This document shows, in pieces, positions 1 through 44,208 of a stretch of DNA of 64,000 bases. Numbering within the stretch: the stretch's first letter is position 1; each line of letters begins with the position of its first letter. A model generated the notes under the pieces. It was not told the origin of the DNA. It was given only the letters and a program-made list of their open reading frames with translations, and searched no databases. The position numbers and the translations under genes were made by a program. This DNA is from a virus. The stretch is from the IMG/VR virus record IMGVR_UViG_3300011269_000001. One strand, given 5' to 3'.

Positions 1-15
1 GCCGAAAAAGAATCA

Positions 16-2742
16 TTGAACTGGACTGCCGGAAAGCAATCATGGGCTGGGGAAACAAAAGTACATTCTGCCGGAGCCCGTCATGGAGAATACCACGTAT
101 TGCCACACCAATCGGGAGGTTTTGACGTCCAGTATTACAAAAAAGGGCACGACTCTCTAAGGTCATCTGCTAAAGCCTCCACTCTTGAGAATGCCAAAGA
201 ACTTGCTTCTCAGCATCATAATTCTGGGGAATGGAAACTTTACAAGAAGGAAGGTGAACCTCGAAAGCCTGGTAGCCGTGGCAGTCAAGCCCCGTCATTT
301 AAGAAATGGGTAGAAAGTGGCAAGGCCGAGACTGAGCAAGCCACCATCCGCGGCAAACCCGTGCAGCCGAATCCTCAAATCAAGCAACCTCATTTCGACG
401 AGAAAGCCGGAATTCTGCATACCCCAAAGGGCAGCTTCCCGATGTATATCCCCTCTCGGGATAAAGAGAACAAGGGCGCTGGTGAAGCTTTCCACAATAT
501 CCTCAATGACCCCAAACTCAGCAAGTTTCACGATTATGCTACTGAGAACTGGGCCCAGGTTCATAAGCTTCTGAAAGAAGGGAAACTCCCCGAGGAAGTC
601 ATTATGCACGGAGTTCTCTTCTCCCAGCTCAGCCCTAATACTCCGGTGCCGGTGCAGGAATTGATGTACGGTCATCTTGTGGATTCGATGAAGCACACGG
701 GCCTGGACCCTCGACATTCCGAATTTTCGAACATCCGTCAGGATTGGCTAGGTCGAGACAATCCGTCAGTGTTCCCAGAGCATGGCCGCAGCCATTTCGA
801 ACGGCTCCAAGAAGAACTCCGGAATAAGAGAGACTCGAAGCTCACTAACCGCAAGGCCGGGGATATCAGCAGCTTCATGTTGGCGAACAATAAGTTCAAG
901 AACATGGAGAAGTACCATACTCTCCACCAAGGTCTTGTGGAATTGGTAAATCGCCATCGCCATGATGCCCGCTCCGCCGTCCAGGAGCTGATGGACCACA
1001 AACACCGCGCCATGCTCTGGAATTCGAAGCGAAATCGGGACATCGATAAAGGTCTTCCAGACCCTGGCGAATACCAAGGCCCAGTGGTTCCTGGTCTTGC
1101 TCCCAAGACGGCCAGGTATACGTACGGGATGATGGGTGGTGGAAACGTCATAGTCCCGGATACGCACATGAGCCGGTATCTGTTCGGGTTGGAGAAGGGC
1201 AAAGACAATCCGACGATTTCTTACGTCAAGGACCTGCTCTGGAATCCGAACAACAGTGAAGTCCTGAACGCCATCGACCGCTATTACGCCAAGCACCATG
1301 ACGCCGTCAAGCACATGCGCGAGCATCCGCGTTGGGGCTCGGAATTTGAATCAGACGAAGACGCTATCTTCCCAGCGTTTTGGAAGAATTGGGTTGCCAT
1401 CGCTCCTCACGAAAAATTCCGCGGCCTGTCGACTCTGGCTCATAATGAGGCCACCGACCATCGACCTTTCTGGGAAGCAATTGCTCCGCATCTGACCAAG
1501 AACGAAGGCGAATCCCTGGATACGTCTTTGCCCGAGAAGACTGCCATAACCATGCATTCTTGGGTCAAGGAATATGGCGAAGTTCCGGCAATGATGCTCT
1601 ACTATCGATACCTGGCACCGCAGCTGTTAGAGGCTGCCAAGCGCCGGTTAAATAAGAAACCGAATCCGGTGATGAAGTTCGAGGCCATGACCATTGAACT
1701 CCGGAAGGCTTTCGGCGACCCGAATATTTTTGACCGACAGGGTCTTAAGTCGCCGGCTAAGGCGGTATTGGGTACTCCGGAACGGGCGAAAGCTTACGCT
1801 CAGGAATTTGCTCAAAAGAATGAGCAGAACCGGCTGCGAAATATTGTTGATTCTCAGCGTCATAGTGTCGGTGAGTACAATCAGCGCCCGGAACAACATA
1901 AGCTTGTCCACGGCCTTGATTTCAACAAGGAAGGCAGACGACCGGAAGCCCCTACGGCTCAAAGCGAAATGTCTCATTGGCGGAAAGCTCCAACTGGGTC
2001 TTGGGCGTTTGTAAAAGGGAGTTCTATCATACACCGGAGCGCCTATACGCCTGCGGGGGGTGGCAAGGCCCTGACTGAGCCTCACGAAGCTTTCAACGAA
2101 GCACGGCGCGAGGGATTGTTTCATAACCTAGCCCACAACGTTTTCAAGCTCGGCAATTACCTGCCCACGGTCTCGGTGGTACACCATCCAGATTCCGGCG
2201 ACGAACTTGCAGTCATCGAGAAAATCAAAGGCGGCGAGCATTACCATGATTCTCCTCAACACCGGGCAATGCTTCAGCAATTGGGTGATAGCGGTGAACT
2301 CGACAAGTTGATGGCTCAAGACCTTATCCTGGGAGTGCCAGACCGACATGACCACAACTGGATGGTAACGCCCAAAGGAATGAAGGTCCTTGACCATGGA
2401 TATGCTTTTGAGGACCCGGGCAACATTCCCGACTATATCGAGCGGTATTCATTTCTGGGCAGAGACTTCAAAAGCATGAAGCCTCACGAGCTTACCGAAC
2501 TTGCCCGGAATTGGACCGGCGCTCCGGTGCACGATAGCGCCCGTCAATTCATCAGAGACATTGACGAGGATGCTCTCCGTCATGAGATGGTCAGGCATCA
2601 GGCCCCGCAGCATATCATCGAACAGACGATGGAAAGACTCCGGAAGGCAAAGGAAATAAACGATGACGAGAAATTCAAGCACGGACTTCCGAGGATGAAA
2701 CTCTGGAATTCACACGCTTACCGTGGTCCCGAGGATTACTAA
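16..2742 (+). CDS. Multidomain putative virion protein (5'-partial): HhH-GPD DNA glycosylase-like domain plus C-terminal HipA/PI3-4-kinase-like domain
   Basis: Frame is open back to position 1, so the gene probably starts before the window. HhH-like VPGLAPKTARY...VIVPDTHMSR at about 1084-1180. Kinase motifs DLILGVPDRHDHN (DRH at 2341) and VLDHG. Linker motifs LTK|NE (1492) and LRK|AF (1699). Confidence 0.7.
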   Translation: MNWTAGKQSWAGETKVHSAGARHGEYHVLPHQSGGFDVQYYKKGHDSLRSSAKASTLENAKELASQHHNSGEWKLYKKEGEPRKPGSRGSQAPSFKKWVESGKAETEQATIRGKPVQPNPQIKQPHFDEKAGILHTPKGSFPMYIPSRDKENKGAGEAFHNILNDPKLSKFHDYATENWAQVHKLLKEGKLPEEVIMHGVLFSQLSPNTPVPVQELMYGHLVDSMKHTGLDPRHSEFSNIRQDWLGRDNPSVFPEHGRSHFERLQEELRNKRDSKLTNRKAGDISSFMLANNKFKNMEKYHTLHQGLVELVNRHRHDARSAVQELMDHKHRAMLWNSKRNRDIDKGLPDPGEYQGPVVPGLAPKTARYTYGMMGGGNVIVPDTHMSRYLFGLEKGKDNPTISYVKDLLWNPNNSEVLNAIDRYYAKHHDAVKHMREHPRWGSEFESDEDAIFPAFWKNWVAIAPHEKFRGLSTLAHNEATDHRPFWEAIAPHLTKNEGESLDTSLPEKTAITMHSWVKEYGEVPAMMLYYRYLAPQLLEAAKRRLNKKPNPVMKFEAMTIELRKAFGDPNIFDRQGLKSPAKAVLGTPERAKAYAQEFAQKNEQNRLRNIVDSQRHSVGEYNQRPEQHKLVHGLDFNKEGRRPEAPTAQSEMSHWRKAPTGSWAFVKGSSIIHRSAYTPAGGGKALTEPHEAFNEARREGLFHNLAHNVFKLGNYLPTVSVVHHPDSGDELAVIEKIKGGEHYHDSPQHRAMLQQLGDSGELDKLMAQDLILGVPDRHDHNWMVTPKGMKVLDHGYAFEDPGNIPDYIERYSFLGRDFKSMKPHELTELARNWTGAPVHDSARQFIRDIDEDALRHEMVRHQAPQHIIEQTMERLRKAKEINDDEKFKHGLPRMKLWNSHAYRGPEDY

Positions 2743-3878
2743 TGGACATTCAACATGAGAACATCTGGCTGGTCTTTGCCGTGCATCCCAAAGATGGAAG
2801 TGACACGATAGAGCGAAGCCTTGTCGGGAAATTCAGCCTACATGATGGCAGACTGGACGTCCTGGAAGACCATGTAGGTTTTCTCAGGGACTTGGAGCGG
2901 CAACCTCCGGCCGTGGCGACGCGGAAAATCTGGTCTATGGAGCATTCACCATACCTGCAGCTCATCAGTCTCGAAGAGCTGAAGCAGGGCGAACATCCTG
3001 ACCTACAGCCGTACTTGACAATGGTTCATGGTAAACTCGAAGATGTCGAACAGCCAAAGGGAGAGAATGTTTTCGAGTACCATCGACAGGGCATGGAAGC
3101 GCCTCAGACCGTCACCGTCAATGAAGATGGCACCGTCCTCCTTGATGGCCACGAGCTTATCCCCGAGGAAGTCCAGAGACTTCTCCAGAACGCAGCGCAG
3201 GGCGTTGCCACAATCCGTTATCCCCAGGACCACGAAGACCAGGCCATGCAGAAGATGGAGGCATTGCTAATGAGTCTTGACGGCGTTGGCGAGTCTGGCC
3301 TCGGCAGGGCCATGCAAGAACTCCGCAAGGCCCAGAAGGATGGCCGCATCGAATCTTACGTCGCTGAGGAAATTGCCCGGCATCTATTCAAGGACACCTT
3401 GGTTCCGGTCATGGGGAATCTGAAAGCGTACCGAGATTTTCTCAGTCGCCCGCGGCGGGGCATCCACGTCCACATCGACGGGAACCAATTTAAGTCCATC
3501 AACGACACCCACGGTCACGAAGTCGGTAATCAGGCCATCAGGGGTATCGGGATGGCAATTCGTTCAGCTCTCGATGAAGCGATCGGACGCGCCAAAGCAA
3601 AGTCCTTTCGTACCGGCGGTGATGAATTCGTGGTCCATGTGCCAACTCACCAGGAAGCGGCTCATTTCTCTAGAGTCCTGAGGTCCAAGCTCGAAGCCCT
3701 GCCGCCTGTCGGCGGTACTCATGGCCTCAGCGTGTCAATGGGATTCGGAATGGTTCCGGAGCATGCCGAAGCAGCACTGCAACAGGCCAAGGAAGCCAGC
3801 CACCAGGCCAATTATCAGCCGGGCAAGGCTCAGCATCACGTCCATAGTTTAGTTCCGGGTTCTGAGGGAGCCTTGTGA
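2742..3878 (+). CDS. GGDEF-domain (diguanylate cyclase-like) protein
   Basis: HIDGNQFKSINDTHGHEVGN and FRTGGDEFVV (GGDEF at 3615-3629), followed by LSVSMG. Start overlaps the stop of the upstream ORF. Confidence 0.85.
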   Translation: MDIQHENIWLVFAVHPKDGSDTIERSLVGKFSLHDGRLDVLEDHVGFLRDLERQPPAVATRKIWSMEHSPYLQLISLEELKQGEHPDLQPYLTMVHGKLEDVEQPKGENVFEYHRQGMEAPQTVTVNEDGTVLLDGHELIPEEVQRLLQNAAQGVATIRYPQDHEDQAMQKMEALLMSLDGVGESGLGRAMQELRKAQKDGRIESYVAEEIARHLFKDTLVPVMGNLKAYRDFLSRPRRGIHVHIDGNQFKSINDTHGHEVGNQAIRGIGMAIRSALDEAIGRAKAKSFRTGGDEFVVHVPTHQEAAHFSRVLRSKLEALPPVGGTHGLSVSMGFGMVPEHAEAALQQAKEASHQANYQPGKAQHHVHSLVPGSEGAL

Positions 3879-4882: not shown

Positions 4883-6178
4883 ATGAAAATCAAAAACTCA
4901 GAGCTTATGGCAATTCTCGAAGACGTCGAAGCCGACCTAGCGAAGGCCTTCGATTCGTCTAAAGGGAACTTTGCCAAAGCTGAAGAGCGTGAGTTCGTAG
5001 AGGAAGGTCGTAAAGCCAAGGAACACGATGGCTATCACGACAGCCCCGAACATCACGACAAAGAAGTTCTGCCTGAAGTTCACAAGGCCTCTCCGTCTGC
5101 AAGTGAATCCAGTACTTCTGCCAGTAGGTCTGCCCGAAAGGCTGAAGATTCTGCTCACGGCGGCCCGGAATGGTCGAAGGTTAGAGAAGGCTCTCATTCT
5201 TCTACGGCTCAAAAGGCTGAGAGGTCTGCGAGCGAATCTTCTACGACCAGTGGTTCACTGAGCAAGGATTCACCGGATTTTGGCGACAAGTCGCCTTCTG
5301 ATGGGTCTCCGAGCGCTGCCAGCGAAGGTAGTGCCAGCGGCGGTGATAAGTCCCCTGAAGACCTTCACAGCGAATTGAGTGCTGAGGCTCAACCCGACCA
5401 GGCTCCGCCCGAGAACGGTGACCAACCCCAGGACCCAGGTGCGATGCAGTCATATAGCCCTGAGGAACTGATGTCTGAGTACCTGAAACTTCCTCCCGAG
5501 GAACTGGATATCCATCTTCAAGCTGCTATGGCGGCCAAAGAACAGCAAGCCGGTGCGCAGCAGCAACCGGCTCCTGATGCTATGGCTCAACCCCCGGCTA
5601 GCCCTTCCCCGGCAGCACCGGCACCGGCTCCTTCTCCCAGCCCCTTGGCTCAGAATGAGAACCGACTGGACGCAGTGTCCCCGAGTAAGGCCAATGGCGG
5701 ACAGAACCGCCTTCTGGATGTGAAGCCCACGGACGCCAAATCCGCAGGCCCGAGCAGACTCGCTGATGTGGCTCCGAGCAAGGAACACATGGAAAGCACG
5801 GACCCAGCAACCAAAGGAAACAAGGCCATGGGCAAGTCCGAACAAGAACAAGACAACCTCAAGAAGTCCGAAGCGGAGAAAGACTCCCTTATCAAGACTC
5901 TTCAAGAGGATGTGGAAATTCTTACCAAGGCCGTGAAACACGTCCTTGAGACTCCGGTCCGCAAGGCTGTGACCAGCATTTCTTTCATCCCCCGCGCCGA
6001 CGCGGCCCCCGCGCCTGCAGCTGAGGAAAAGAAAGCTCCACAGAATCTGAGCGATGTCCGGGCTCGGCTGAATCAACTGACCCAAGACCCCAAGTTGGCC
6101 AAGTCCGACCGTGAACTCATCACGGCTTGGTACGAGCGGCGAGCAAGTCTGGAACAGTTGGCAAAATTTTTCGAGTAA
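4883..6178 (+). CDS. Putative capsid scaffolding protein
   Basis: Directly upstream of MCP. Acidic and low-complexity with a C-terminal coiled coil. Many x-x-K|[AS] motifs (LAK|AF, FAK|AE, ARK|AE, AQK|AE, MGK|SE, LKK|SE, VRK|AV, LAK|SD). Three imperfect repeats (NRLDAVSPSK, NRLLDVKPTD, SRLADVAPSK). Confidence 0.6.
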   Translation: MKIKNSELMAILEDVEADLAKAFDSSKGNFAKAEEREFVEEGRKAKEHDGYHDSPEHHDKEVLPEVHKASPSASESSTSASRSARKAEDSAHGGPEWSKVREGSHSSTAQKAERSASESSTTSGSLSKDSPDFGDKSPSDGSPSAASEGSASGGDKSPEDLHSELSAEAQPDQAPPENGDQPQDPGAMQSYSPEELMSEYLKLPPEELDIHLQAAMAAKEQQAGAQQQPAPDAMAQPPASPSPAAPAPAPSPSPLAQNENRLDAVSPSKANGGQNRLLDVKPTDAKSAGPSRLADVAPSKEHMESTDPATKGNKAMGKSEQEQDNLKKSEAEKDSLIKTLQEDVEILTKAVKHVLETPVRKAVTSISFIPRADAAPAPAAEEKKAPQNLSDVRARLNQLTQDPKLAKSDRELITAWYERRASLEQLAKFFE

Positions 6179-6215: not shown

Positions 6216-7607
6216 ATGGCAAGTGAAGTCACCCAAGCATTGCTGAAGGCCCTAGAGGCGGGCAACTACAATGCAGCTCCCTCGACTTTGGTCCAGGGTT
6301 CCGCATTGCAGATTGAAGACCTCTCGCCGGTGATGAACAACGTCACCTACGATGACAGCCACATTAAGCTGCAGAAGATGCTGAAAGTCGACCCGGTCAA
6401 GAGTACCTTGGCCCAATTCGACCGTCAGCTCAGCTACGGCATCTTCGGGGCTACCGCCCAGAACGAAGGCGCAGTCGGTCAAGAGGAAATGAGCGAATAC
6501 GTTCGTATCGTGGTCCCGATGGCCTATTATAGCCATGTTCGTCGTGTGACGGTGGTCGCAAACCTCGTGGCAACGGTCGACGGCGTCAAAGCCGAAGAGC
6601 GGGCAGCCAGCGACGGTGCGAAGAAAATTGCCGGCGATATCGAGTTCGACAGCTTCCGCGGTAAGGCGGACTTCTCGAACGCGGGTCTTTTCGACGGCTC
6701 CATGCTTGCTATCCCCGGTCTTCCGAACATTCTCGGCCTGGATGCCCAGGTCCGGATGTCGGACGGTCAGCGGAACGCAACGGACTTGATGTTCGGCGAG
6801 TTTGGGTCTGACGACACCGTGGTCATCCAAGGTGGCGGTACCCTGACGCAGGACAACATCGAAGACGCCAGTGTCCGGTCCTCGATGAACTTCGGTATGG
6901 CGGACAAGTTAGTCGTCGACCCGAAGGTTCTCAGCGCCTACAACAAGATTTCGTTCGGCAAAGAGCGAATCATCCTCGCCGGGGCTCCTCAGGACGCCAC
7001 CAGCGCCGACCTTCGGCGTCAGTGGGTGTCCGGTGGAACCGTCAACGTCGAGGCTTCTCGATTCCTCTCTGGCAAGACCCGTCCGGCAACGGCACGGTCT
7101 TCTTCGCCTGGCGCGCCTTCCATCGCGCTGACGGACAACGCTGCTCAAGGCACCAGTGCTCCGGCAGGTACTTACAACTACTACGCTTCAGCTGTCAACG
7201 AGCGTGGTGAGTCTGTCAAGTCGACCTCTGTGACTGTGACCATTGCCGCTGGCGACAGCGTGACGGTTACCATCACTCCTCCGGGTTCCGGCGTGGTTCG
7301 GTACTTCAACGTGTTCCGTTCGAATGCCGGCGGCAACGATGCGACCTCGCGGTTCATCGGCCGTGTGTCCAACAGCGGCGCTGCGACGACAACCTTCCTC
7401 GACCTGTTCAACAAGAATCCTGGTTTCGTCACCGGCTTCTTGATTCAGGGCGATACGATGGCTTTGAAGGAGTTAGCCCCGTATTCTAGGCTGAAGCTTG
7501 CAGTTACGGACCTGAGTATACCTGAAGCGCACTTCAGGTTTGTAACGCTAGCCGTTATGCATCCGAGAAAGAATGTTCTGGTAGACAATCTCAGAGGCGC
7601 ATTCTAA
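6216..7607 (+). CDS. Major capsid protein (Herelleviridae/SPO1-Twort-like type)
   Basis: 463 aa. N-terminal LLK|ALEAG...GSALQIEDL, IAGDIEFDSFRGKA and C-terminal ELAPYSRLKLA...PRKN parallel Twort/K-type capsid proteins. Strong RBS and downstream terminator. Confidence 0.9.
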   Translation: MASEVTQALLKALEAGNYNAAPSTLVQGSALQIEDLSPVMNNVTYDDSHIKLQKMLKVDPVKSTLAQFDRQLSYGIFGATAQNEGAVGQEEMSEYVRIVVPMAYYSHVRRVTVVANLVATVDGVKAEERAASDGAKKIAGDIEFDSFRGKADFSNAGLFDGSMLAIPGLPNILGLDAQVRMSDGQRNATDLMFGEFGSDDTVVIQGGGTLTQDNIEDASVRSSMNFGMADKLVVDPKVLSAYNKISFGKERIILAGAPQDATSADLRRQWVSGGTVNVEASRFLSGKTRPATARSSSPGAPSIALTDNAAQGTSAPAGTYNYYASAVNERGESVKSTSVTVTIAAGDSVTVTITPPGSGVVRYFNVFRSNAGGNDATSRFIGRVSNSGAATTTFLDLFNKNPGFVTGFLIQGDTMALKELAPYSRLKLAVTDLSIPEAHFRFVTLAVMHPRKNVLVDNLRGAF

Positions 7608-7701: not shown

Positions 7702-8268
7702 ATGGCAGATGAAGAAAGAAAAAAGAAAAACGCAGAGAGACAAAGGCGATGGAGGGAACGACATCCTCCAACGGAAGAAGATTTGAAGCGTGCTGCTGAG
7801 AGGGCTGCAAAGCGGCGACTAGAGAATCCAGAGAGGGTTGCTGAAAGCAATAGAAGGTATTACCAGAAGCATCGAGAGGATATTTTGGAGTATCAAAAGC
7901 AATACAATGCTGAGCACCCTGAGAAGAATATAGAATGGATTAAAAATCATCCCGACAACGTAAAGAACAACCGTCTAAAAAGTCACTATGGCATCGACCT
8001 CGATTGGTACAATGAGACTTTATCGAAGCAAGGTAATGGTTGTGCCATCTGCGGAACAAAAGAACCTGGAGGCGCAGCCACCAATGGTTACTTTCACGTA
8101 GACCACGACCATGAAACCGGCAAGCCCAGAGGTCTTCTTTGTCATGCCTGCAATACTTCTCTCGGTGGCTTCAAAGAATCTACAGACCTCCTCCAAAAAG
8201 CCATCGACTATCTCAAATCTTTCCTCATTTGCTCGGGTAGTTCAGCGGTCAGAACACCGCACCTGTAA
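7702..8268 (+). CDS. Endonuclease VII-family (His-Me finger) free-standing homing endonuclease
   Basis: CAICG...FHVDHDHETGKPRGLLCHACNTSLG with a basic helical N-terminus. Extended -10 TGATATACT just upstream. AT-richer than its flanks. Confidence 0.85.
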   Translation: MADEERKKKNAERQRRWRERHPPTEEDLKRAAERAAKRRLENPERVAESNRRYYQKHREDILEYQKQYNAEHPEKNIEWIKNHPDNVKNNRLKSHYGIDLDWYNETLSKQGNGCAICGTKEPGGAATNGYFHVDHDHETGKPRGLLCHACNTSLGGFKESTDLLQKAIDYLKSFLICSGSSAVRTPHL

Positions 8269-32177: not shown

Positions 32178-32633
32178 TTGGCGGAAGTTTATCAAGGCGG
32201 TCCTTGCAAGCGCGGGCATTCTGGGCTCCGGTATAAGAGCACTCGGAACTGCATAACTTGCGCTATCGGTCGCACGACCGACTGGCGTCAGCGAAACCCT
32301 GACCTTGTAAGCAAGTACATGAAGCATCCGAATAGAGCCCTATGGCACGCGGCTAAATTTCGTGCAAAGCAGCGAGGCTTGGAATTTGATATTCTTCCAA
32401 CAGAAATTGTCGTTCCTGAATTTTGTCCAGTATTTCAAATCAAACTGGGGAAGATTACCGGCAGACTTCGAAATGACACCCCATCACTTGACCGCGTTGA
32501 CAATTCCCTCGGCTATGTGCACGGTAATGTTCGTGTTATTTCTTGGCGAGCTAATCAGGCCAAGAGCAATTTGTCTGATGAAGAGCTTATTGCTCTTGGC
32601 CTTGATGCTTTTACCAGGCTGGAGGGGCACTAA
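32178..32633 (+). CDS. HNH/His-Me finger endonuclease
   Basis: VPEFCPVF...PSLDRVDNSLGYVHGNVRVISWRANQAK with an N-terminal CKRGH...CITC zinc knuckle. Confidence 0.8.
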   Translation: MAEVYQGGPCKRGHSGLRYKSTRNCITCAIGRTTDWRQRNPDLVSKYMKHPNRALWHAAKFRAKQRGLEFDILPTEIVVPEFCPVFQIKLGKITGRLRNDTPSLDRVDNSLGYVHGNVRVISWRANQAKSNLSDEELIALGLDAFTRLEGH

Positions 32634-33929: not shown

Positions 33930-36900
33930 ATGAAACTGGGCAAGTCTCAACGCGAGAAGGCCCTCGTCGTAGCCTCGGTGGCCTGCTTCAACCCCGATGG
34001 CTTGCTCCTGCTCGGCAAGCGCGACGATACCGGCAAATGGGTTCTGCCGGGCGGCCATGCTACGCTCAAGGAAGAGAACGAAGAAGACCATCGCCGGACC
34101 GCGGTCCGGGAACTTTACGAGGAAGCTGGCCTCAAGCCCAAGACCTTGGAATATCTCGGTCAAGATACTGTCCATAAGGGCGGACATGACATCGTCGTGC
34201 ACTGTTACCGAGCCGATGTTGATGGAGAGCCTACTGGCAAGCATGACCCCGACGAAGAGTGCTCTCACTGGGAATGGGTAGACGCCAGCGACGGCATCCC
34301 GGAGAAGTACGACCTCCGAGACCGGCCTAATTGCACCCTGGTCAGGCTCGGCATCGAGGCCAGCCTCAGCAAGGCCCAAAAGAATTGGCGGTCCCGGGAA
34401 GGCATCACCATCCCGACGGCTGATAATCCGGAGCGTAGGCACTGGAACGATGCCTTCGAACAACACCTGAAGGAAGTTTTTGGCAGCCAGCGAGGCCAGG
34501 ACCTCCAGCCGATAAAGGTCCCCGTTGAACAACTCCAGGGCATGAACATGCCCGTGAACCAGGACCGGCTCCGACTCTACCGTCGCATGGCCGCTGCCGG
34601 CGAACAACTCCCGCCCATCGTCGTCCGACGTTCGGGGAAGGGCTTTAACGTCATCGACGGCAACCATCGTCTGGCAGCCGCCCAGGCCCGGGGTGTCACG
34701 CACCTGAATGCGTACGAAATTCTGGACCCAGTGAAGAAGGCCTTGAAGGACATTCCTGTCGGGCCACGAGTTAAATTTCAACCAGAAGAAGTCCAGCAAT
34801 GGCGCTCGTTGACTGGTGGTTCGAATCCATGGAAATTGGACCAAGGTTTGCTCCAGGGCGCCGTCCATGACTATAGCCATGTCCTTAAGCCAGAGCATCG
34901 ACAAGCCGGCTATCGGCTCAGGGTTTACCACGCCCCGCGAGTCTCGCACCCTGACTTGAAAGGAAGATTCCCTGGACACAGGCTAGAAGCTAAGTTGTTC
35001 CACGGTGACCAATACGCAGGCGGTATTCAAGCCCTCGTCGGTCACGAAGACCCGGTAGACCCGGGTGTAATTGACATCGGTCATTCTCGGCTGAGAGACG
35101 AGCATCGGGGCAAGGGCCTCGGCCTGGCTCTCTACGAGGCTCTCCTGGCCCATGGGAAAAATAAATTAGGTGCCTCGCACGTCAGCGGAGATGCTCATAG
35201 TACCCTGGCGTCTAGAGTCCATCAGAAGCTGAGCGAAAGACACGGAATGGGGTACGAACCCGAAGAGAAAATGGGGCCATCAGAATCAAAGCCTACTGCT
35301 GCCGAATTTCAGCGCCTAGGAATTGAGCCAAAGTCCCAATACAATTATGCCGCAGAAGCCTTCGATGAGCGTTTTGCCCCGTATCAATACGCTCTGAAAC
35401 AGGAAGTGGCTCCGACCGATATCGGCCTGGAGGCCAGGGGCTACCAATTCGGAATTCATCACCTGAAGGACCGAACCGGGCAAGTCCATACCACGACCGT
35501 CTCAGTGACTCATCCTGATGAATATAAGCGGTCGGGCGACGACAAAGTTGGTGCCGTAGATTTCGAACATACGCCAGACGAGCATCTTGTTGCCAGCCAG
35601 GTTTGGGTTCATGAGCGTCATCAACGACAGGGTATTGCCAGGCGAATGTATCAGCTTGCAACTGAAGCAGCAAACAAGCCAATTAGGCCATCTTCTCTGC
35701 GGACCCAGGCGGGTGCCAATTTTTGGCTTGGTAAGGATGAACTAGATTTTAATAAAAAAGAAAATGCCGAACCTGGACACTCGGACGAGGATGATGGTAT
35801 ACTACCCTCTTTTCAGGAGCGTGATTCATTGGTTCTTGAGAAGGCACTCTGGCCGAGTTTGTTGACAGCCGCTACTCTAGCAACATCTCCGGTCCAGGCG
35901 CAAGTCCCAGGTGCAGAAATCCAACCCCAGGCACAGCAGGTCCAGCAAGTAGAGCAGAAATGGACTCCGCATGGCCTGGACCGGGAATTGAAACCTATCG
36001 CTCACCTGGAATCTGGTTTCGGCCGAAACACGAACCATGAGCCACATTCTGGGGGTCCGTATCATACGGCCTATGGAGCCCTGGGCCTGAAACCGGTCAC
36101 CGCTCACGAAACCTATAAGCACAGTCCGCGGTTGCAGAAGCTTTTCCCGGGTCTCGACTCTCCGGAGAAAGTCATCGAGAAGATGAAGGACCCACAATTT
36201 TACAACATTGTGGCCAGCGGACATTGGCGCTACCTCAAGAGAGTACTCGGTGACCCTCTGAAAGCCGCCTATGGTTGGCGTTGGGGTCTGGGTGCTGCTC
36301 AGCACGCTGACGACTATCAAATCAAGACCGAGCCCTATGTGCAGAAGTACGGCCTGATGATGGCTGCCAAGCTCGGTCAAGCGGTTATCAGCCACCTGAT
36401 GGAAAAGACCGAGCTTACGAAGTCTGAGCAGGACCATCTGATGACCCTTCTGGACCATGATGACCGTCTCGAACGACGCCTGGCCCTCAAGCACAAGAGC
36501 ATAAAGCCGTTCCACTTGCGCCACGCTCTTCATGATGAAGACCCAGAGATTCGAGCCCTGGCTGCTGCTCACCCGGCGATGACCGATGAACTTCTGACCG
36601 AGTCCTTGTATCACGACGACCCGATGGTCCGTGAGACTCTGGCTCGTCGACCGGACCTGCAGGCTCATCACCTGGACGTTCTGCTCTGGGACCCAGCGAC
36701 TCAGGCCTTGGCCAGCCGGCATCCGGCTCTGACCGAGGAACAGCGACAGAAGCTTGTCGAGCATCCCCAGACCCCGGCCGGACTCCGAGAAGAAGTGCTG
36801 CGGAAGAACATCGGCTTCCTTCTCTATCCCAATTTTGGTCTCAAGCAAGTTCCCACGCAGCCCATGATTTTGGGAGATAGAAAGCATCGCGAAAATCGAT

Positions 36901-38798
36901 ATCTGCTGCAAGCAACAAGGCTTACCGGGAAGAAGGCTCCTGCAGCTGCTCAGGTCAAAGCTTATCTTCGGGCTGCCAGAACCGGTGGTTCGATGCTTTA
37001 CAACACGATGCCCGATGCGCCGACTCCTAGCCATTGGCGGACCATGGGTGGTTTTGTCAACCCTGAGACGAATTTGAATTTACACGGTAATGTCGGTCAC
37101 GAATCTCAACACAGCGTCTACGGACAGCTTTCTCAGAACATTGGCCAAAAGGGAATGCGGGAAGTAGTTGACCGGACCATTGGTTCCTTGGATGAAAAGC
37201 ATCGCCAGGCCCTGGATAAAATCATGGCCACAAAGCGCTATGCGTATACCCCGGAGCAAGCGCCCGAGGAAAACCTGGCCTACGTCCATAACTACCTTCA
37301 GGACCCGGTGATGCGGGCGGGGGTTCATCGGCATCATGGCCTGAATGAGCAAGAAGGTCGGGAGTTGGTACAAGACGTCCGTCGGGCCTGGCAGCAGATG
37401 CAACGGTACGCCCAGACTCTGAAGCCCAAAGATATCGGGCCTCACATCTGGGCCGACCCCAAGCTCAACAAGACCGAAGAGCTTCGCGACTGGGCCAAGC
37501 ATCACGGTGCCGACCTGACCAAGCGCAGCGAGGTCCTGCTTCGAGACCCTTCGCGTGGCAAGCCCGAAGAGAAGGAAGACCTTGCCCAGGACCTGATGGG
37601 ATTCAGCGAACATGCTGACGCCGTCATGGCCGCAGCAAAATTCCTATCCGGAGGCAAAGAAATCAACGAGGAAGAATTCCGTCGTTATCTCTGGGTTCAC
37701 GACAACGATATCGAGGCCGCTGCTCTGGCAGCCTATGGCTTGGAAATCAACGAAGCCAACCTGAAGGCTCTGAAGGGTTTGCTGGAGATTCGTGACCTCG
37801 GGAAGAAGGAAAAGATTTGGGACTACGACCCGCACGTGGTCGCCGCGGTCCCTGAAGGCGAGAAAACGGCCCGTGAGGTTGAAGCAGCTCTCCGTGCCGG
37901 CAACGTGAAGCAACTTGAACTCAAGGGCAAGCACAGTAAAGGCGCCCTTATGGTTTGGGCTCCACATGGTGGCGATACCTATCTTCTGAAGCCCGGGTCC
38001 GGTAAGCCGAGTCCGGCAAAGGGGGTCAAGGAAGAACGCGCCAGCCAGTCCCAGCGCGAGGCAGCATTCGCCCACGTGGCCCGGAATTGGGACCTGGAAC
38101 AGTATCTTCCCAGTGCCGACCTGATTATCGTCGAAGACAAAAAGGACGGCCAGAAGGTAATCAAAGAATACGCAGCCATCAAATTCCTGGGCATCGGCTG
38201 GAAAAATCTTGACAAGACCCGGAGTAAGACCCCGAACCTGGGTCGCATGGCCATGACCAAGTACCTCCGGAACGGGAGTCTGCACAAGTGGGCTGTTCTC
38301 GACTGGGTGCTCGGGAATCCGGACCGCCACAGCCAGAATCTGATGATTTCTAACGAGGAAATGGGTAGCCGGTTGATGCTCATTGACCACGGCTCCGCGT
38401 TTGCCGGACAGAGCTTCGACCCCGTCCACGACGAGAGTAGCTTCACACCCTATTACCTTCGGATTTGGAATTCGGACTCACGTAAGAATTTCAACCTCCT
38501 GAATCCAGAAGAGCGTTTCAAGGTCATGCCCCGGACCAATCACTTCAGCGAAGACCTCCTGAGGGTTTGGTTGCAGGGTATCAACGAGCATGAACTGGAA
38601 TCAACACTGCTGCGCTATGGCCTGAACCCCGATGCTGAAGTTGGGCGCCTGCAGTTGGTCAAGACCTTGGCTCTCTCAATGCCGGTTGATGAAGCCATCA
38701 ATCAGATTTGGTCCGGGATGTACGGTGACCCGACTCACCAGGCCACGGCAGAGGAATTGACCGGACAAGCCGAACCGGTGGAGAACTTGGTTCGCTAG
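33930..38798 (+). CDS. 1622-aa polyvalent protein: Nudix, ParB-like, two GNAT, lysozyme/SLT-like, HEAT-like repeats, HExxH zincin-like, HipA/PI3-4-kinase-like
   Basis: LPGGH...AVRELYEEAG; PPIVV...IDGNHRLAA; HRGKGLG and HQRQGIA; IAHLESG...AYGALG...AAYGWRWG; LHDEDPEIR/LYHDDPMVR; HESQH (37098); DWVLGNPDRHSQN...LIDHG (38322). Confidence 0.85.
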   Translation: MKLGKSQREKALVVASVACFNPDGLLLLGKRDDTGKWVLPGGHATLKEENEEDHRRTAVRELYEEAGLKPKTLEYLGQDTVHKGGHDIVVHCYRADVDGEPTGKHDPDEECSHWEWVDASDGIPEKYDLRDRPNCTLVRLGIEASLSKAQKNWRSREGITIPTADNPERRHWNDAFEQHLKEVFGSQRGQDLQPIKVPVEQLQGMNMPVNQDRLRLYRRMAAAGEQLPPIVVRRSGKGFNVIDGNHRLAAAQARGVTHLNAYEILDPVKKALKDIPVGPRVKFQPEEVQQWRSLTGGSNPWKLDQGLLQGAVHDYSHVLKPEHRQAGYRLRVYHAPRVSHPDLKGRFPGHRLEAKLFHGDQYAGGIQALVGHEDPVDPGVIDIGHSRLRDEHRGKGLGLALYEALLAHGKNKLGASHVSGDAHSTLASRVHQKLSERHGMGYEPEEKMGPSESKPTAAEFQRLGIEPKSQYNYAAEAFDERFAPYQYALKQEVAPTDIGLEARGYQFGIHHLKDRTGQVHTTTVSVTHPDEYKRSGDDKVGAVDFEHTPDEHLVASQVWVHERHQRQGIARRMYQLATEAANKPIRPSSLRTQAGANFWLGKDELDFNKKENAEPGHSDEDDGILPSFQERDSLVLEKALWPSLLTAATLATSPVQAQVPGAEIQPQAQQVQQVEQKWTPHGLDRELKPIAHLESGFGRNTNHEPHSGGPYHTAYGALGLKPVTAHETYKHSPRLQKLFPGLDSPEKVIEKMKDPQFYNIVASGHWRYLKRVLGDPLKAAYGWRWGLGAAQHADDYQIKTEPYVQKYGLMMAAKLGQAVISHLMEKTELTKSEQDHLMTLLDHDDRLERRLALKHKSIKPFHLRHALHDEDPEIRALAAAHPAMTDELLTESLYHDDPMVRETLARRPDLQAHHLDVLLWDPATQALASRHPALTEEQRQKLVEHPQTPAGLREEVLRKNIGFLLYPNFGLKQVPTQPMILGDRKHRENRYLLQATRLTGKKAPAAAQVKAYLRAARTGGSMLYNTMPDAPTPSHWRTMGGFVNPETNLNLHGNVGHESQHSVYGQLSQNIGQKGMREVVDRTIGSLDEKHRQALDKIMATKRYAYTPEQAPEENLAYVHNYLQDPVMRAGVHRHHGLNEQEGRELVQDVRRAWQQMQRYAQTLKPKDIGPHIWADPKLNKTEELRDWAKHHGADLTKRSEVLLRDPSRGKPEEKEDLAQDLMGFSEHADAVMAAAKFLSGGKEINEEEFRRYLWVHDNDIEAAALAAYGLEINEANLKALKGLLEIRDLGKKEKIWDYDPHVVAAVPEGEKTAREVEAALRAGNVKQLELKGKHSKGALMVWAPHGGDTYLLKPGSGKPSPAKGVKEERASQSQREAAFAHVARNWDLEQYLPSADLIIVEDKKDGQKVIKEYAAIKFLGIGWKNLDKTRSKTPNLGRMAMTKYLRNGSLHKWAVLDWVLGNPDRHSQNLMISNEEMGSRLMLIDHGSAFAGQSFDPVHDESSFTPYYLRIWNSDSRKNFNLLNPEERFKVMPRTNHFSEDLLRVWLQGINEHELESTLLRYGLNPDAEVGRLQLVKTLALSMPVDEAINQIWSGMYGDPTHQATAEELTGQAEPVENLVR

Positions 38799-39449
38799 TA
38801 GCCGTCGTCTGGACCCAAGTCGCCAGTGAATACACGGCACTTGAGGCAAGCCGGCATTTCGCCCTCGTACGGGTCAAACTTGGTTGCTTCGATTATCTGA
38901 ACCTTGGTTACCGGCTTCGGGTTGCACTTGCAATCCCAGGGTTCGTTCCGGGTGTTGTCTCGAAACTCCGCTCGGTCCTTGAAAATCTCCGGATGCCAGG
39001 TATCCGAGACGTGCGCGTAGACTCCGAAGCCAACCAACTGACCTTCGTGGAAGACGTTAAAGTAAGTCCGACTCATGGTCGTGGGTGCGGCTTTACGAAC
39101 TGGCATTTGCCGTTGTGATTTTCGTCCAGGCTGCAGACCAGAGCGTTCCACTGACCGCAGTACTCGCAGTTCTTGGTCTGCAGGCAGGAACCGACAGCAT
39201 GACCATACTCATCGTAGACGGCCAGCTTGTGACCCTGGTGATTGGCGAAGAATTGGAGCTTGTTGCGGTCTATTTCGAGGATTTCCCGGCCGTCATCGTC
39301 TATCTTGGCAAGCGCAGCTAGGGTATCGGCGTTCTTAATCAGGTCCTGAAGCCCCGGGACATCGTAGTAAGAGGAGTCGTGATTGTTGATGTACCGGAAG
39401 GAGCCATCTTCCAGGTCGCAGGTCAGGCAACGGATATCGTATTTTGTGC

Positions 39450-40124
39450 TCACTTGGGAAAGTCTTTCGTCTTGAGTTTGGTTATGAGACGATGCCCCTT
39501 CTTATCGAAGAGAGTCTCTAATGGACGCCCCACCAACCCCTCTGCCATTTGCTTTGAATCGACGGCGCACTTCGACTTGAAGCCGTTCCAGACCATCACG
39601 GTCGCATCTTCCAGCGTCATCTCACCAAACGATGGCACGACGTCCAGACCCAGCTTTGCCGCAACATCGCAAACGTTTTCGTAGTTGAGCCACCACTTGC
39701 CGTCCACGAGCACGTCAAAGACAATCAGCTTCTTGGTAGTTGAGTACCCGCCACCTTTTTGAATTCCTGCTCCGTATCCTTCGCCGTAAATGACTACGTC
39801 GATATCCTTGAGTCCGGTGTACTCAAAGCCTCCACCTTCGCGGTCCCATTCGTCTGGAGGAAATGCAACTCGGACTTTTTCTGGCGTCACATTCTCGTAG
39901 AGCCACTTTACGAGGTCTGCGTGTATCTGTGCGTTGTCAGTCTTGCCGCCGAAGCTCAGCTTTCCATCTTTCCAGATGCAACGGATATTGGTACCGTCTA
40001 TCTTCTCGGTCCAATGCCACGTTTTTAGCAACGAATAGGTTCGGTTCTTCAGCTCGCCCACACGAACCTTGAACGTCTTTTCATCCCGTTCGTAAAGCGT
40101 TTCTATCTTGTGATACTCGCTCAT
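39450..40124 (-). CDS. RNA ligase (Rnl2-like nucleotidyltransferase)
   Basis: YHKIETL, TEKIDGTN (motif I), IYGEGYG, IVFDV, AEGLVG, ITKLK. Confidence 0.8.
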   Translation of the reverse strand: MSEYHKIETLYERDEKTFKVRVGELKNRTYSLLKTWHWTEKIDGTNIRCIWKDGKLSFGGKTDNAQIHADLVKWLYENVTPEKVRVAFPPDEWDREGGGFEYTGLKDIDVVIYGEGYGAGIQKGGGYSTTKKLIVFDVLVDGKWWLNYENVCDVAAKLGLDVVPSFGEMTLEDATVMVWNGFKSKCAVDSKQMAEGLVGRPLETLFDKKGHRLITKLKTKDFPK

Positions 40125-40776
40125 TTGCGCTCCGAACCTTGTTGTTTCATTTTGCCCTACTATGGGCTCGGTGATACTTGCGGTTCTTTTCCCGGGCCTG
40201 CTCTCGATGCGAATAGCACCACACGGTTCTATCAACCGTTGGCGAGACGACACCTATCGGGCACATGACGCAGAGACCGTCGCGCTTGCGGGCGTGGTAC
40301 TTGTTGTAACTCCACTCCCAACAATATTTCCGATTTTTGATAGTATGAGGCATGCACCGCTGTTGACCGGGGATATGTCTTTGGTCACAGCTGTGGCAGA
40401 GACCTTGGTGATAGCGGCTCTTGGACCACCGGCGCCAGCGGAATCTTGCCTTGAGCAAGTGCTTGCTGCAGATGCTATAGCCGTTCAGCTTGTCTGCGGA
40501 ACACTGCGGACACTTCACTTTGGCTTTGAAGGCCTTGATGAAAATAGGACTCATGATGCAATCTTCCTTCCCGGGACATCTTCTCCGCTGTGCGCGCCGA
40601 GGATATCTACCCAACTAGGGCTTATGATTTCTCCACCCAGGCGAGCCGGCGTGCTGTGCACGAAAACGTCAACGCGGATGTCGTCGTGAACGATGTCGAC
40701 GATGTAGACCTTTTTGTCATTCAAGGTCTCTGGGATTCGGGCAATCCGCTCTTTCAATTCTCCGACGGTCATAGAG

Positions 40777-43890: not shown

Positions 43891-44208
43891 ATGATTGAAA
43901 TCGACGAACGCCAGCTTGACGGGAAACCGAAGAAAGTCGGGACCCTGCATGGGAAACCTGTACTACTTTTTCGCACCAAGGGCGGTTTCTACATGAATGT
44001 CATCATGAAGAACGGTGCCCCGGAGTGGATTGGGACCGGACCTCACGCGGCTGTTTGCCGTTACGTCAGCAAGCTCCGTGAACCCGAAGTGGTCTGGACC
44101 GAGTTGTCGAAGTCTGATTGGGTCGACCCAGCGCATTTTACCGAAATGATTCCCAAGTATCAGGAACTGACAGACCGCTGCAACGAGCTGTATCAGCTCA
44201 ACAAGTAG
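43891..44208 (+). CDS. Putative virion-associated protein
   Basis: RBS GGGGAG, CAATCTT at 43840, LSK|SD motif. Confidence 0.55.
   Translation: MIEIDERQLDGKPKKVGTLHGKPVLLFRTKGGFYMNVIMKNGAPEWIGTGPHAAVCRYVSKLREPEVVWTELSKSDWVDPAHFTEMIPKYQELTDRCNELYQLNK

Follow-up and report, generated by a model that had tools for sequence, protein, structure and literature searches.

How does a phage turn a long chain of unrelated enzymes into separate working proteins, and which protease would cut the chain? The question is raised by a 64,000-nt stretch of DNA (hereafter the window) from IMG/VR virus record IMGVR_UViG_3300011269_000001, which in total comprises 164,871 bp with direct terminal repeats. An open reading frame (ORF) at 33930-38798 (+) of the window encodes P0001, a mosaic (polyvalent) protein of 1622 residues. 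Phages are known to inject a small number of proteins in finished form. Polyvalent proteins carry two to fifteen unrelated domains per polypeptide and are predicted to be delivered with the DNA (Iyer, Burroughs, Anand, de Souza and Aravind, 2017; PMC5512222); how such multi-domain strings become working enzymes is unsettled. The initial annotation of the ORF, made from the sequence alone, had described an eight-domain polyprotein with a Lys cleavage site at nearly every domain boundary, packaged in the prohead, cut into separate enzymes and injected. We found that a conserved motif, Leu-x-Lys↓Ser/Ala (arrow, putative cut), lies at the joints of P0001 and its relatives and matches the putative maturation site of the capsid protein, which offers a concrete mechanism. 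In our reading, to which we assign a probability of roughly 0.6, a head protease probably trims the capsid protein at this motif, and the enzymes of P0001 probably enter the head, are separated there by cutting and accompany the DNA into the host cell.

P0001 consists of nine modules, in the order Nudix, ParB-like, GNAT-1, GNAT-2, lytic transglycosylase, HEAT/LRV-like, HExxH, small helical and PI3/PI4-kinase-like. Five of these are backed by Pfam or PHROG matches and one by its fold. The domain types first listed were largely recovered, while their number rose from eight to nine with an extra small helical module at residues 1182-1292.

A lysine motif at the module joints

All 11 tripeptides that had been proposed as cleavage sites were found where they had been placed, with their Lys at K5, K148, K270, K490, K602, K638, K826/K831, K959, K1181 and K1292. 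As proposed, the motif was loose, with Leu, Val, Met or Ala at P3 and in one case Leu at P2, and P0001 contains 106 Lys residues. A protein search returned 17 relatives, and the 16 non-redundant ones were used for the junction statistics. Ends of BLAST alignment blocks fell within 8 residues of L.K[SGA] 253 times against 54 expected (4.7-fold); reversed, permuted, Arg or Glu versions of the motif gave ratios of 0.7 to 2.1, and Lys without a hydrophobic P3 gave 1.1. Similarly, [LM]xK[SGAT] was present in 47 of 114 junction clusters, compared with 15.4 ± 3.3 under random placement and a maximum of 26 in 2000 trials. When the junction Lys residues were compared with all other Lys residues, using no preset motif, Leu/Val at P3, Ser at P1′ and Glu at P2′ were recovered. 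Enrichment of the motif at domain boundaries, which had been set beforehand as a check, was therefore strong among the 16 relatives but barely visible in P0001 alone.

Additionally, blocks excised from P0001 at the proposed Lys residues aligned with relatives from their first residue to their last. In the relatives, nearly every joint reads hydrophobic-x-Lys, with Ser, Ala or Gly at the next position and often Glu after that (e.g., LSK↓S, LNK↓SE, LEK↓SE, VRK↓SE, LKK↓G and LAK↓S). A BLAST block map of the 17 relatives showed that the Nudix module is kept in all of them, mostly at the N-terminus, and the kinase end in many, and that the middle modules have been shuffled, lost, duplicated or replaced; the motif persists at joints where the modules are 30-45% identical. 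In P0003, an NCBI metagenomic relative with 90% identity, GNAT-2 is missing and the chain is joined exactly at the residues corresponding to Lys490 and Lys602, so that P0003 appears to be a snapshot of module exchange at the Lys sites. Taken as a whole, the block-end enrichment, the end-to-end alignment of blocks and the conserved joints bear out the proposal that the Lys motif marks module boundaries, and the motif is almost certainly a real, selected feature.

The individual sites of P0001 differ in how closely they follow the motif. K5, K148, K638, K831 and K959 are canonical and conserved, and K270, K826, K1181 and K1292 are conserved with a variant P3 or P1′. K490 and K602 are off consensus, which makes cutting at these two positions less certain in P0001; in relatives, a canonical site is found within a few residues of them.

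The same motif in capsid, scaffold and portal proteins

The major capsid protein (6216-7607 (+); phrog_752, E 9e-49) had been noted to carry LLK↓A near its N-terminus. This was upheld by alignment with the capsid proteins of Myxococcus phage Mx1 and SPO1, in which Leu9, Lys11 and Ala12 are the same in all three; in SPO1, whose capsid protein is homologous to that of this phage with 27% identity, this Lys is residue 23. The putative maturation site reads LLK11↓A in this phage, LRK↓A in Mx1, LVK13↓A in the related phage L010 and LNK23↓A in SPO1, and the capsid proteins of an A511-like Listeria phage, Twort and 812 show hydrophobic-x-K↓S at residue 23 or 24, which fits the reported loss of 23 residues from the capsid protein of A511.

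An acidic, Pro/Ser-rich, scaffold-like protein is encoded at 4883-6178 (+) and has eight [LMIV]xK[SGAT] sites in 431 residues (Poisson p 5.6e-4). The motif is likewise repeated in the scaffolds of Mx1 (five copies) and L010 (six copies) and in SPO1 gp3.3, where 11 copies occur in 244 residues. In the head set, the density of L.K[SGA] was 3.1 times that of the remaining genome, with controls at 0.9 to 1.2. In the portal protein, encoded upstream of the window (L003:5154-7364:-), Lys sites were seen at residues 30-36, 79 and 685-688 of 736, and in the portal of SPO1 such sites read SLSK9↓A and LEK33↓S. Judging from these sites, the portal is likely to be trimmed by the same head protease.

A head-maturation protease encoded in the head operon

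The head protease is the N-terminal domain of P0019, a protein of 1282 residues whose gene (L008:107-3955:-) starts 1106 bases before the window, so that positions 1-2742 (+) hold the C-terminal 913 residues. The SPO1 protease gp3.2, used as a query, matched the N-terminus of P0019, and it was by that route only that the protease was found. Residues 1-215 make up the head-maturation protease domain, with His45 and Ser124 invariant in 37 sequences. An hhalign comparison of the 37-sequence profile with SPO1 gp3.2 gave a probability of 98.45% (E 4.2e-15) and brought the catalytic His and Ser into register. An AlphaFold2 (AF2) model of the domain, with a predicted local distance difference test score (pLDDT) of 82, matched T4 gp21 with a Z score of 10.8 and a root-mean-square deviation of 2.3 Å over 123 residues. 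Herpesvirus assemblins scored 7 to 9.3 and unrelated folds 5 or less. A profile search of the PDB with the protease alignment gave no significant match. The small ORFs of the head operon (two of 174 residues and others of 609, 151 and 431 residues) were also considered as the protease and were rejected, since PHROG, Pfam and PDB searches with them revealed no protease. On the profile comparison and the model, then, the head operon encodes a head protease with the fold of the SPO1, T4 and herpesvirus enzymes. A hydrophobic P3 and a small P1′ are the site pattern of T4 gp21, which cuts at Leu/Ile-x-Glu, and of the herpesvirus assemblins, which share its fold.

Directly after the protease domain of P0019 lies the site VRK217↓A, whose Lys217 is invariant in the 37 members, and then a sequence that repeats the capsid N-arm; such a Lys site and N-arm copy likewise follow the protease domain of SPO1 gp3.2. 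Beyond Lys217, some 1000 more residues contain additional Lys sites, and the C-terminus of P0019 is a kinase-like module homologous to that of P0001 (E 4e-8). Clustering at 50% identity divides the family of proteases with such an extension into 835 clusters, and among the best 150, 127 exceed 600 residues. L.K[SGA] occurs 377 times in the extensions of this family and 152 times in shuffles. If the proposed processing is correct, these proteins would make up a large, so far unannotated family of cargo proteins that begin with a protease. A DRHxxN motif was seen near the C-terminus in about half of the long members.

The stop codon of P0019 is overlapped by a GGDEF cyclase gene (2742-3878 (+); Pfam GGDEF, 57.8 bits), also in the head operon, whose product has LRK196↓A before its catalytic domain. 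The cyclase may be further packaged cargo.

The transglycosylase module

The part of P0001 that had been called lysozyme-like (35844-36407 (+); residues 639-826, ending MEK826↓T) turned out to have a lytic transglycosylase fold. An AF2 model built on 11 relatives reached a pLDDT of 81, and its fold matches (Foldseek and VIA) were all lytic transglycosylases, with Z scores of 12.1 for LtgA (5mpq), 11.9 for Slt70 and MltC, 9.4 for the T7 core protein gp16 and 9.1 for phiKZ gp144. The Glu-Ser pair at residues 694-695 is invariant in the alignment of the 11 sequences. The module did not match Pfam PF01464 in a Pfam search with E up to 1, and a PDB profile search with the transglycosylase alignment returned no significant match. 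According to the model, the module is a divergent family of the SLT/goose-lysozyme fold. Kinship with the Pfam-positive SLT gene of a related contig (locus L009) was considered and discarded, there being no similarity.

The module begins with a weakly hydrophobic, Gly/Ala/Ser-rich helix that lies directly after LEK638↓A, an arrangement kept in all relatives. The helix would become N-terminal only after a cut at this site, and its combination with a transglycosylase of the T7 gp16 type would fit a role in cell entry. A hydrophobic anchor in the middle of the chain makes most sense if it is freed by the predicted cut.

Proposed processing and delivery

These results suggest the following scheme. 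P0001 would be a polyvalent protein of the virion, made up of modules that fold independently and whose linkers carry the site of the head protease, with a hydrophobic residue (mostly Leu) at P3, any residue at P2, Lys at P1 and then Ser, Ala, Gly or Thr, often followed by Glu. It would be built into the prohead core, where the N-terminal protease of P0019, judging from the shared motifs, would trim the capsid protein after Lys11, shred the scaffold and split P0001 into about nine products of 110 to 330 residues. The cut pieces would remain in the head and leave it with the DNA. The transglycosylase would then open the cell wall, and the other enzymes, going by their family names, would act on host nucleotides, nucleic acids and proteins ahead of phage gene expression. 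Single domains of 110-330 residues might plausibly be unfolded and moved through the tail more easily than the undivided chain, by analogy with the internal proteins and Alt of T4.

As a head-protease substrate, P0001 would have to be present in the prohead. Its packaging is supported by the position of the gene, which abuts a phrog_772 structural gene within the structural cluster in this phage, in Mx1 and in L010, and by the occurrence of ART-PolyVal domains (PF18760) in the relatives P0011, P0014 and P0016.

More broadly, Leu-x-Lys↓Ser/Ala could be a general address-and-release code, by which any enzyme module flanked by it can travel on a chain carried in the head, be released by the head protease and be injected. 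We put this generalization forward tentatively, at a little below an even chance. If it were true, the protease would itself be the first module of such a chain (P0019), the capsid would be a modular, evolvable protein-delivery device, and the code would be widespread in uncultivated phages, given the number of clusters in the protease-plus-extension family. The proposed processing, if correct, would explain the free swapping of modules, since each would bring its own release site. For each chain, it would also specify precisely where about nine injected enzymes begin and end once matured, and it would suggest a design rule, taken from nature, for placing foreign proteins in phage heads. Myxococcus phage Mx1, which is cultivable, has the same genes.

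Objections and alternative explanations

Several observations weigh against the proposal that P0001 is cut apart in the head. Strict L.K[SGA] occurs only four times in P0001 and is hardly enriched against the genome rate (Poisson p 0.05). Three of the sites first listed (ALK↓Q, LGK↓D and LGK↓K) are off consensus, and the motif is present in just 41% of the junction clusters. Tripeptides that match it are also found inside the kinase fold (K1429 and K1578), so the motif by itself does not define a cut. Pfam S78 and S77 found no match in a six-frame search of the whole genome with E up to 1; the kinship of the protease is visible by profile-profile and fold comparison only, which is why the enzyme is not filed under either family. 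The P0001 gene lies 26 kb from the capsid gene in this genome. No capsid-targeting signal was recognizable in P0001, whose N-terminal peptide, MKLGK, has only five residues, against about ten or more in targeting peptides of the T4 type, and is kept in 11 of 16 relatives. The literature yielded no proteomic, N-terminal or biochemical data for this phage or Mx1. Finally, P0001 carries an HExxH module of its own, the type of module that is held responsible for processing in the published model of polyvalent proteins (PMC5512222).

Some of these points would suit an uncleaved chain, in which the Lys motif is a linker or docking element (a capsid-interior contact or a structural cap) and P0001 works in one piece, packaged or not. 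Some sites of P0001 are indeed off consensus, and there are precedents for transfer without cutting in the virion RNA polymerase of N4 and in several polyvalent proteins of plasmids (PMC5512222). In a pure linker, however, there would be no reason for Leu at P3 and Lys at P1 to be kept while the neighbouring residues drift. It would also leave unexplained the motif in the N-terminal peptide of the capsid protein and its eleven copies in the SPO1 scaffold, and the hydrophobic anchor ahead of the transglycosylase would be left in mid-chain. We consider this explanation unlikely.

Alternatively, the sites are real and are processed by the HExxH module of P0001 itself or by a host protease, before packaging or after injection. 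The H, E and H of this module and a downstream EE pair are invariant, and zincin modules have been predicted to process polyvalent proteins (Iyer et al., 2017; PMC5512222). Against self-processing, the HExxH module is missing from the chain in 6 of 16 relatives, including Mx1, and the junction motif is kept there, which supports processing in trans. The same motif is found in the capsid N-terminus and in scaffolds, the classic substrates of a head protease, and this holds in SPO1, where no polyvalent protein was seen in the region examined. Its hydrophobic P3 and small P1′ also agree with the site pattern of T4 gp21 and the assemblins. Cleavage by a protease other than that of the head is thus quite unlikely in our view.

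A location outside the head has still less to commend it: P0001 would be a wall-degrading protein of the tail or baseplate with accessory domains, or a cytoplasmic enzyme string. The gene follows one of the phrog_772 "tail fiber" type, and transglycosylase domains are common in tail proteins, but the joints carry the motif of the prohead protease, an enzyme that a protein of the tail would not encounter. Moreover, a tail has no use for Nudix, GNAT or kinase modules, and the ART-PolyVal domains of the relatives are typical of injected proteins. We rate such a location as very unlikely. The idea that the motif is a recombination scar left by microhomology at the joints, with no role in the protein, would account for module exchange exactly at Lys residues, as in the P0003 deletion, but is hardly credible, since the codons differ at the eleven joints (Leu being CTG, CTC or CTT) with nothing beyond AAG in common, so that the constraint acts on the protein, and since the motif outlasts the divergence of the modules and is found in the unshuffled capsid and scaffold genes.

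Comparison with known systems

With its multiple domains, its domain repertoire and its mosaic rearrangement, P0001 is a polyvalent protein by the features tested. Like the published set (PMC5512222), it joins many unrelated effector domains in one chain, has extremely mosaic orthologues and is encoded among late virion genes. The chain and its relatives draw on the same repertoire (GNAT, kinase, ParB-like, lysozyme/transglycosylase and zincin, with ART-PolyVal in relatives), although the kinase here is of the PI3/PI4K-HipA type, whereas that of the published set is a truncated Ser/Thr/Tyr kinase. For that set, processing by an intrinsic zincin peptidase was predicted, with the site undefined (PMC5512222). 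Here, by contrast, Leu-x-Lys↓Ser/Ala lies at the joints and is shared by the capsid, scaffold, portal and protease, which points to the head serine protease acting in trans. A packaged multi-enzyme kit as such has already been published as polyvalent proteins (PMC5512222); what is new is the link to the prohead protease. In the literature searched, we found no enzyme string whose joints all carry a head-protease site, and no head protease at the start of such a string.

The proposal resembles the T4 system of IPI-III, Alt and gp21 (PMC9026906, PMC9958956) in its prohead-loaded cargo, a protease of the same fold, cutting at hydrophobic-x-P1, retention in the head and injection. In T4, the cargo comprises enzymes and anti-defence proteins, each of which is encoded by a separate gene and has an N-terminal targeting peptide that is removed by one cut. 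Here, up to nine modules occupy one product with a predicted cut at each joint, P1 is Lys and a targeting peptide is not evident. Phages phiKZ (gp175) and SPN3US (gp245) also employ one prohead protease that cuts many head and ejection substrates at a short motif present in several copies in each (PMC10052503, PMC5694885). In SPN3US, however, 13 of 14 mapped cuts remove N-terminal propeptides (A-x-E motif) and the 14th releases the C-terminal propeptide of the protease itself; these papers describe no string of enzymes released domain by domain.

Head maturation also resembles that of the Herelleviridae (SPO1 protease gp3.2, scaffold gp3.3 and capsid protein gp6.1; A511, Twort and 812), which have a homologous protease and capsid protein, the Lys site at residue 23 or 24 and a motif-saturated scaffold. 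The SPO1 protease is a stand-alone protein of 256 residues, and no enzyme polyprotein was seen in the region examined, whereas here the protease heads a chain of 1282 residues and a second chain with sites, P0001, is present. In the Dar system of P1 (DarB, DdrB and DarA; PMC9024508), large multi-domain anti-defence proteins are likewise placed in the procapsid and injected, and DarA and DdrB are processed. The Dar proteins are encoded by several genes and follow a defined loading order, no joint motif is known, and DarB localizes by means of its N-terminal residues (PMC9024508). The papers on P1 and Felix O1 contain nothing that bears on a Lys site.

The sole relative among deposited phages is Mx1, whose "NUDIX hydrolase" WNM70333 and "kinase" WNM70334 (OR576727.2), both annotated by their first domain only, are direct homologues of P0001 with about 40% identity over 64% of the query. 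They share its gene neighbourhood and junction motif. Unlike P0001, the Mx1 chain is divided between two genes, has its Nudix module at an internal position, includes ART-PolyVal and is without HExxH. The kinase part of Mx1, as a separate gene, has Lys sites at residues 35, 222 and 323. A literature search on Mx1 turned up no virion proteome or genome analysis beyond the announcement.

Remaining modules of P0001

The chain opens with MKLGK, which ends at the first putative cut, K5↓S6; the start MKLGKS is what the 11 relatives have in common. The Nudix module follows at 33945-34373 (+) (residues 6-148), and its assignment was confirmed by Pfam (NUDIX, 61.8 bits). It ends at LSK148↓A, within a cluster of block edges at residues 142-157, and relatives read LSK↓S, LSK↓G or LSK↓N. 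Its Nudix box has an 11-residue loop, compared with 7 in the canonical signature, between the first Glu and the R-E-x-x-E-E core, and the catalytic core is intact. The ParB/Srx-like module (34374-34739 (+); residues 149-270), read as a ParB-like NTPase/nuclease, was likewise correctly named, matching phrog_1033 (E 6.6e-6) and containing a DGNHR motif. It aligns with relatives over residues 1-122 of 122 and ends at VKK270↓A, for which relatives have LKK↓G or VRK↓S.

Both acetyltransferase assignments held. GNAT-1 (34740-35399 (+); residues 271-490) scored 24.4 bits with Acetyltransf_1, above the cut-off, and ends at the atypical ALK490↓Q, with Leu at P2. The end Y-x-L-K-[SAT]-E is kept in all relatives, several of which have a second, canonical site 5-7 residues downstream. 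GNAT-2 (35400-35735 (+); residues 491-602) matched Pfam Acetyltransf_1 with E 7.9e-11 and ends at LGK602↓D, where P1′ is atypical. It is separated from the transglycosylase by an acidic spacer of 36 residues (35736-35843 (+); residues 603-638) that ends at LEK638↓A within a cluster of block edges at residues 629-645.

After the transglycosylase, the pentapeptide TELTK (36408-36422 (+); residues 827-831) ends at the canonical site LTK831↓SE. Lys831 is aligned to a Lys in five of six collinear relatives and lies one residue downstream of the Lys in the sixth. The helical repeats at 36423-36806 (+) (residues 832-959) gave weak matches only, LRV_2 at 5.9e-5 and HEAT at 6.4e-4, both under the cut-off. 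They end at LRK959↓N, and K959 with Leu at P3 is invariant in 6/6 collinear relatives and in 8/8 sequences of a second comparison of relatives.

In the HExxH (zincin-like) module (36807-37472 (+); residues 960-1181), H1057, E1058, H1061 and the downstream EE pair are invariant in eight sequences. A profile match was not obtained, a profile search with the module alignment returning zero PDB or Pfam matches. The module ends at LNK1181↓T, and a Lys site lies within 2 residues of this position in relatives and in Mx1. The small helical module (37473-37805 (+); residues 1182-1292), which has no assignment, ends at LGK1292↓K, where Mx1 has LKK↓GE at the aligned place. The C-terminal PI3/PI4-kinase/HipA-like module (37806-38795 (+); residues 1293-1622), an atypical kinase, scored 35.2 bits with Pfam PF00454 (PI3_PI4_kinase), against a cut-off of 27.1. 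It contains DRH..N and IDHG motifs that answer to the DRHxxN catalytic loop and the DxG metal loop of PI3/PI4-kinase-like proteins, in agreement with the kinase call.

Relatives and genome neighbourhood

A DNA-level search of phage records with the P0001 gene found no match, and a pattern scan of viral contigs gave zero confirmed relatives. In P0003, an extra insert of 88 residues lies between the ParB-like module and GNAT-1, with a K-A-L junction on both sides. The chain is split or extended differently in related phages (L010:16201-18708, L001:12040-13899), and in another related contig the polyvalent gene is followed by one for an ART-PolyVal protein of 835 residues.

About 20 kb (window 7700-28900) lie between the capsid gene and the thymidylate synthase gene, which are adjacent in Mx1. 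ORFs of the endonuclease VII/HNH type occur at 7702-8268 and at 32178-32633. Directly after the P0001 gene, the minus strand at 38795-40253 carries a gene for an RNA ligase (Pfam RNA_ligase, E 1.1e-14) together with small ORFs; this stretch interrupts the structural cluster, which resumes near 44118.

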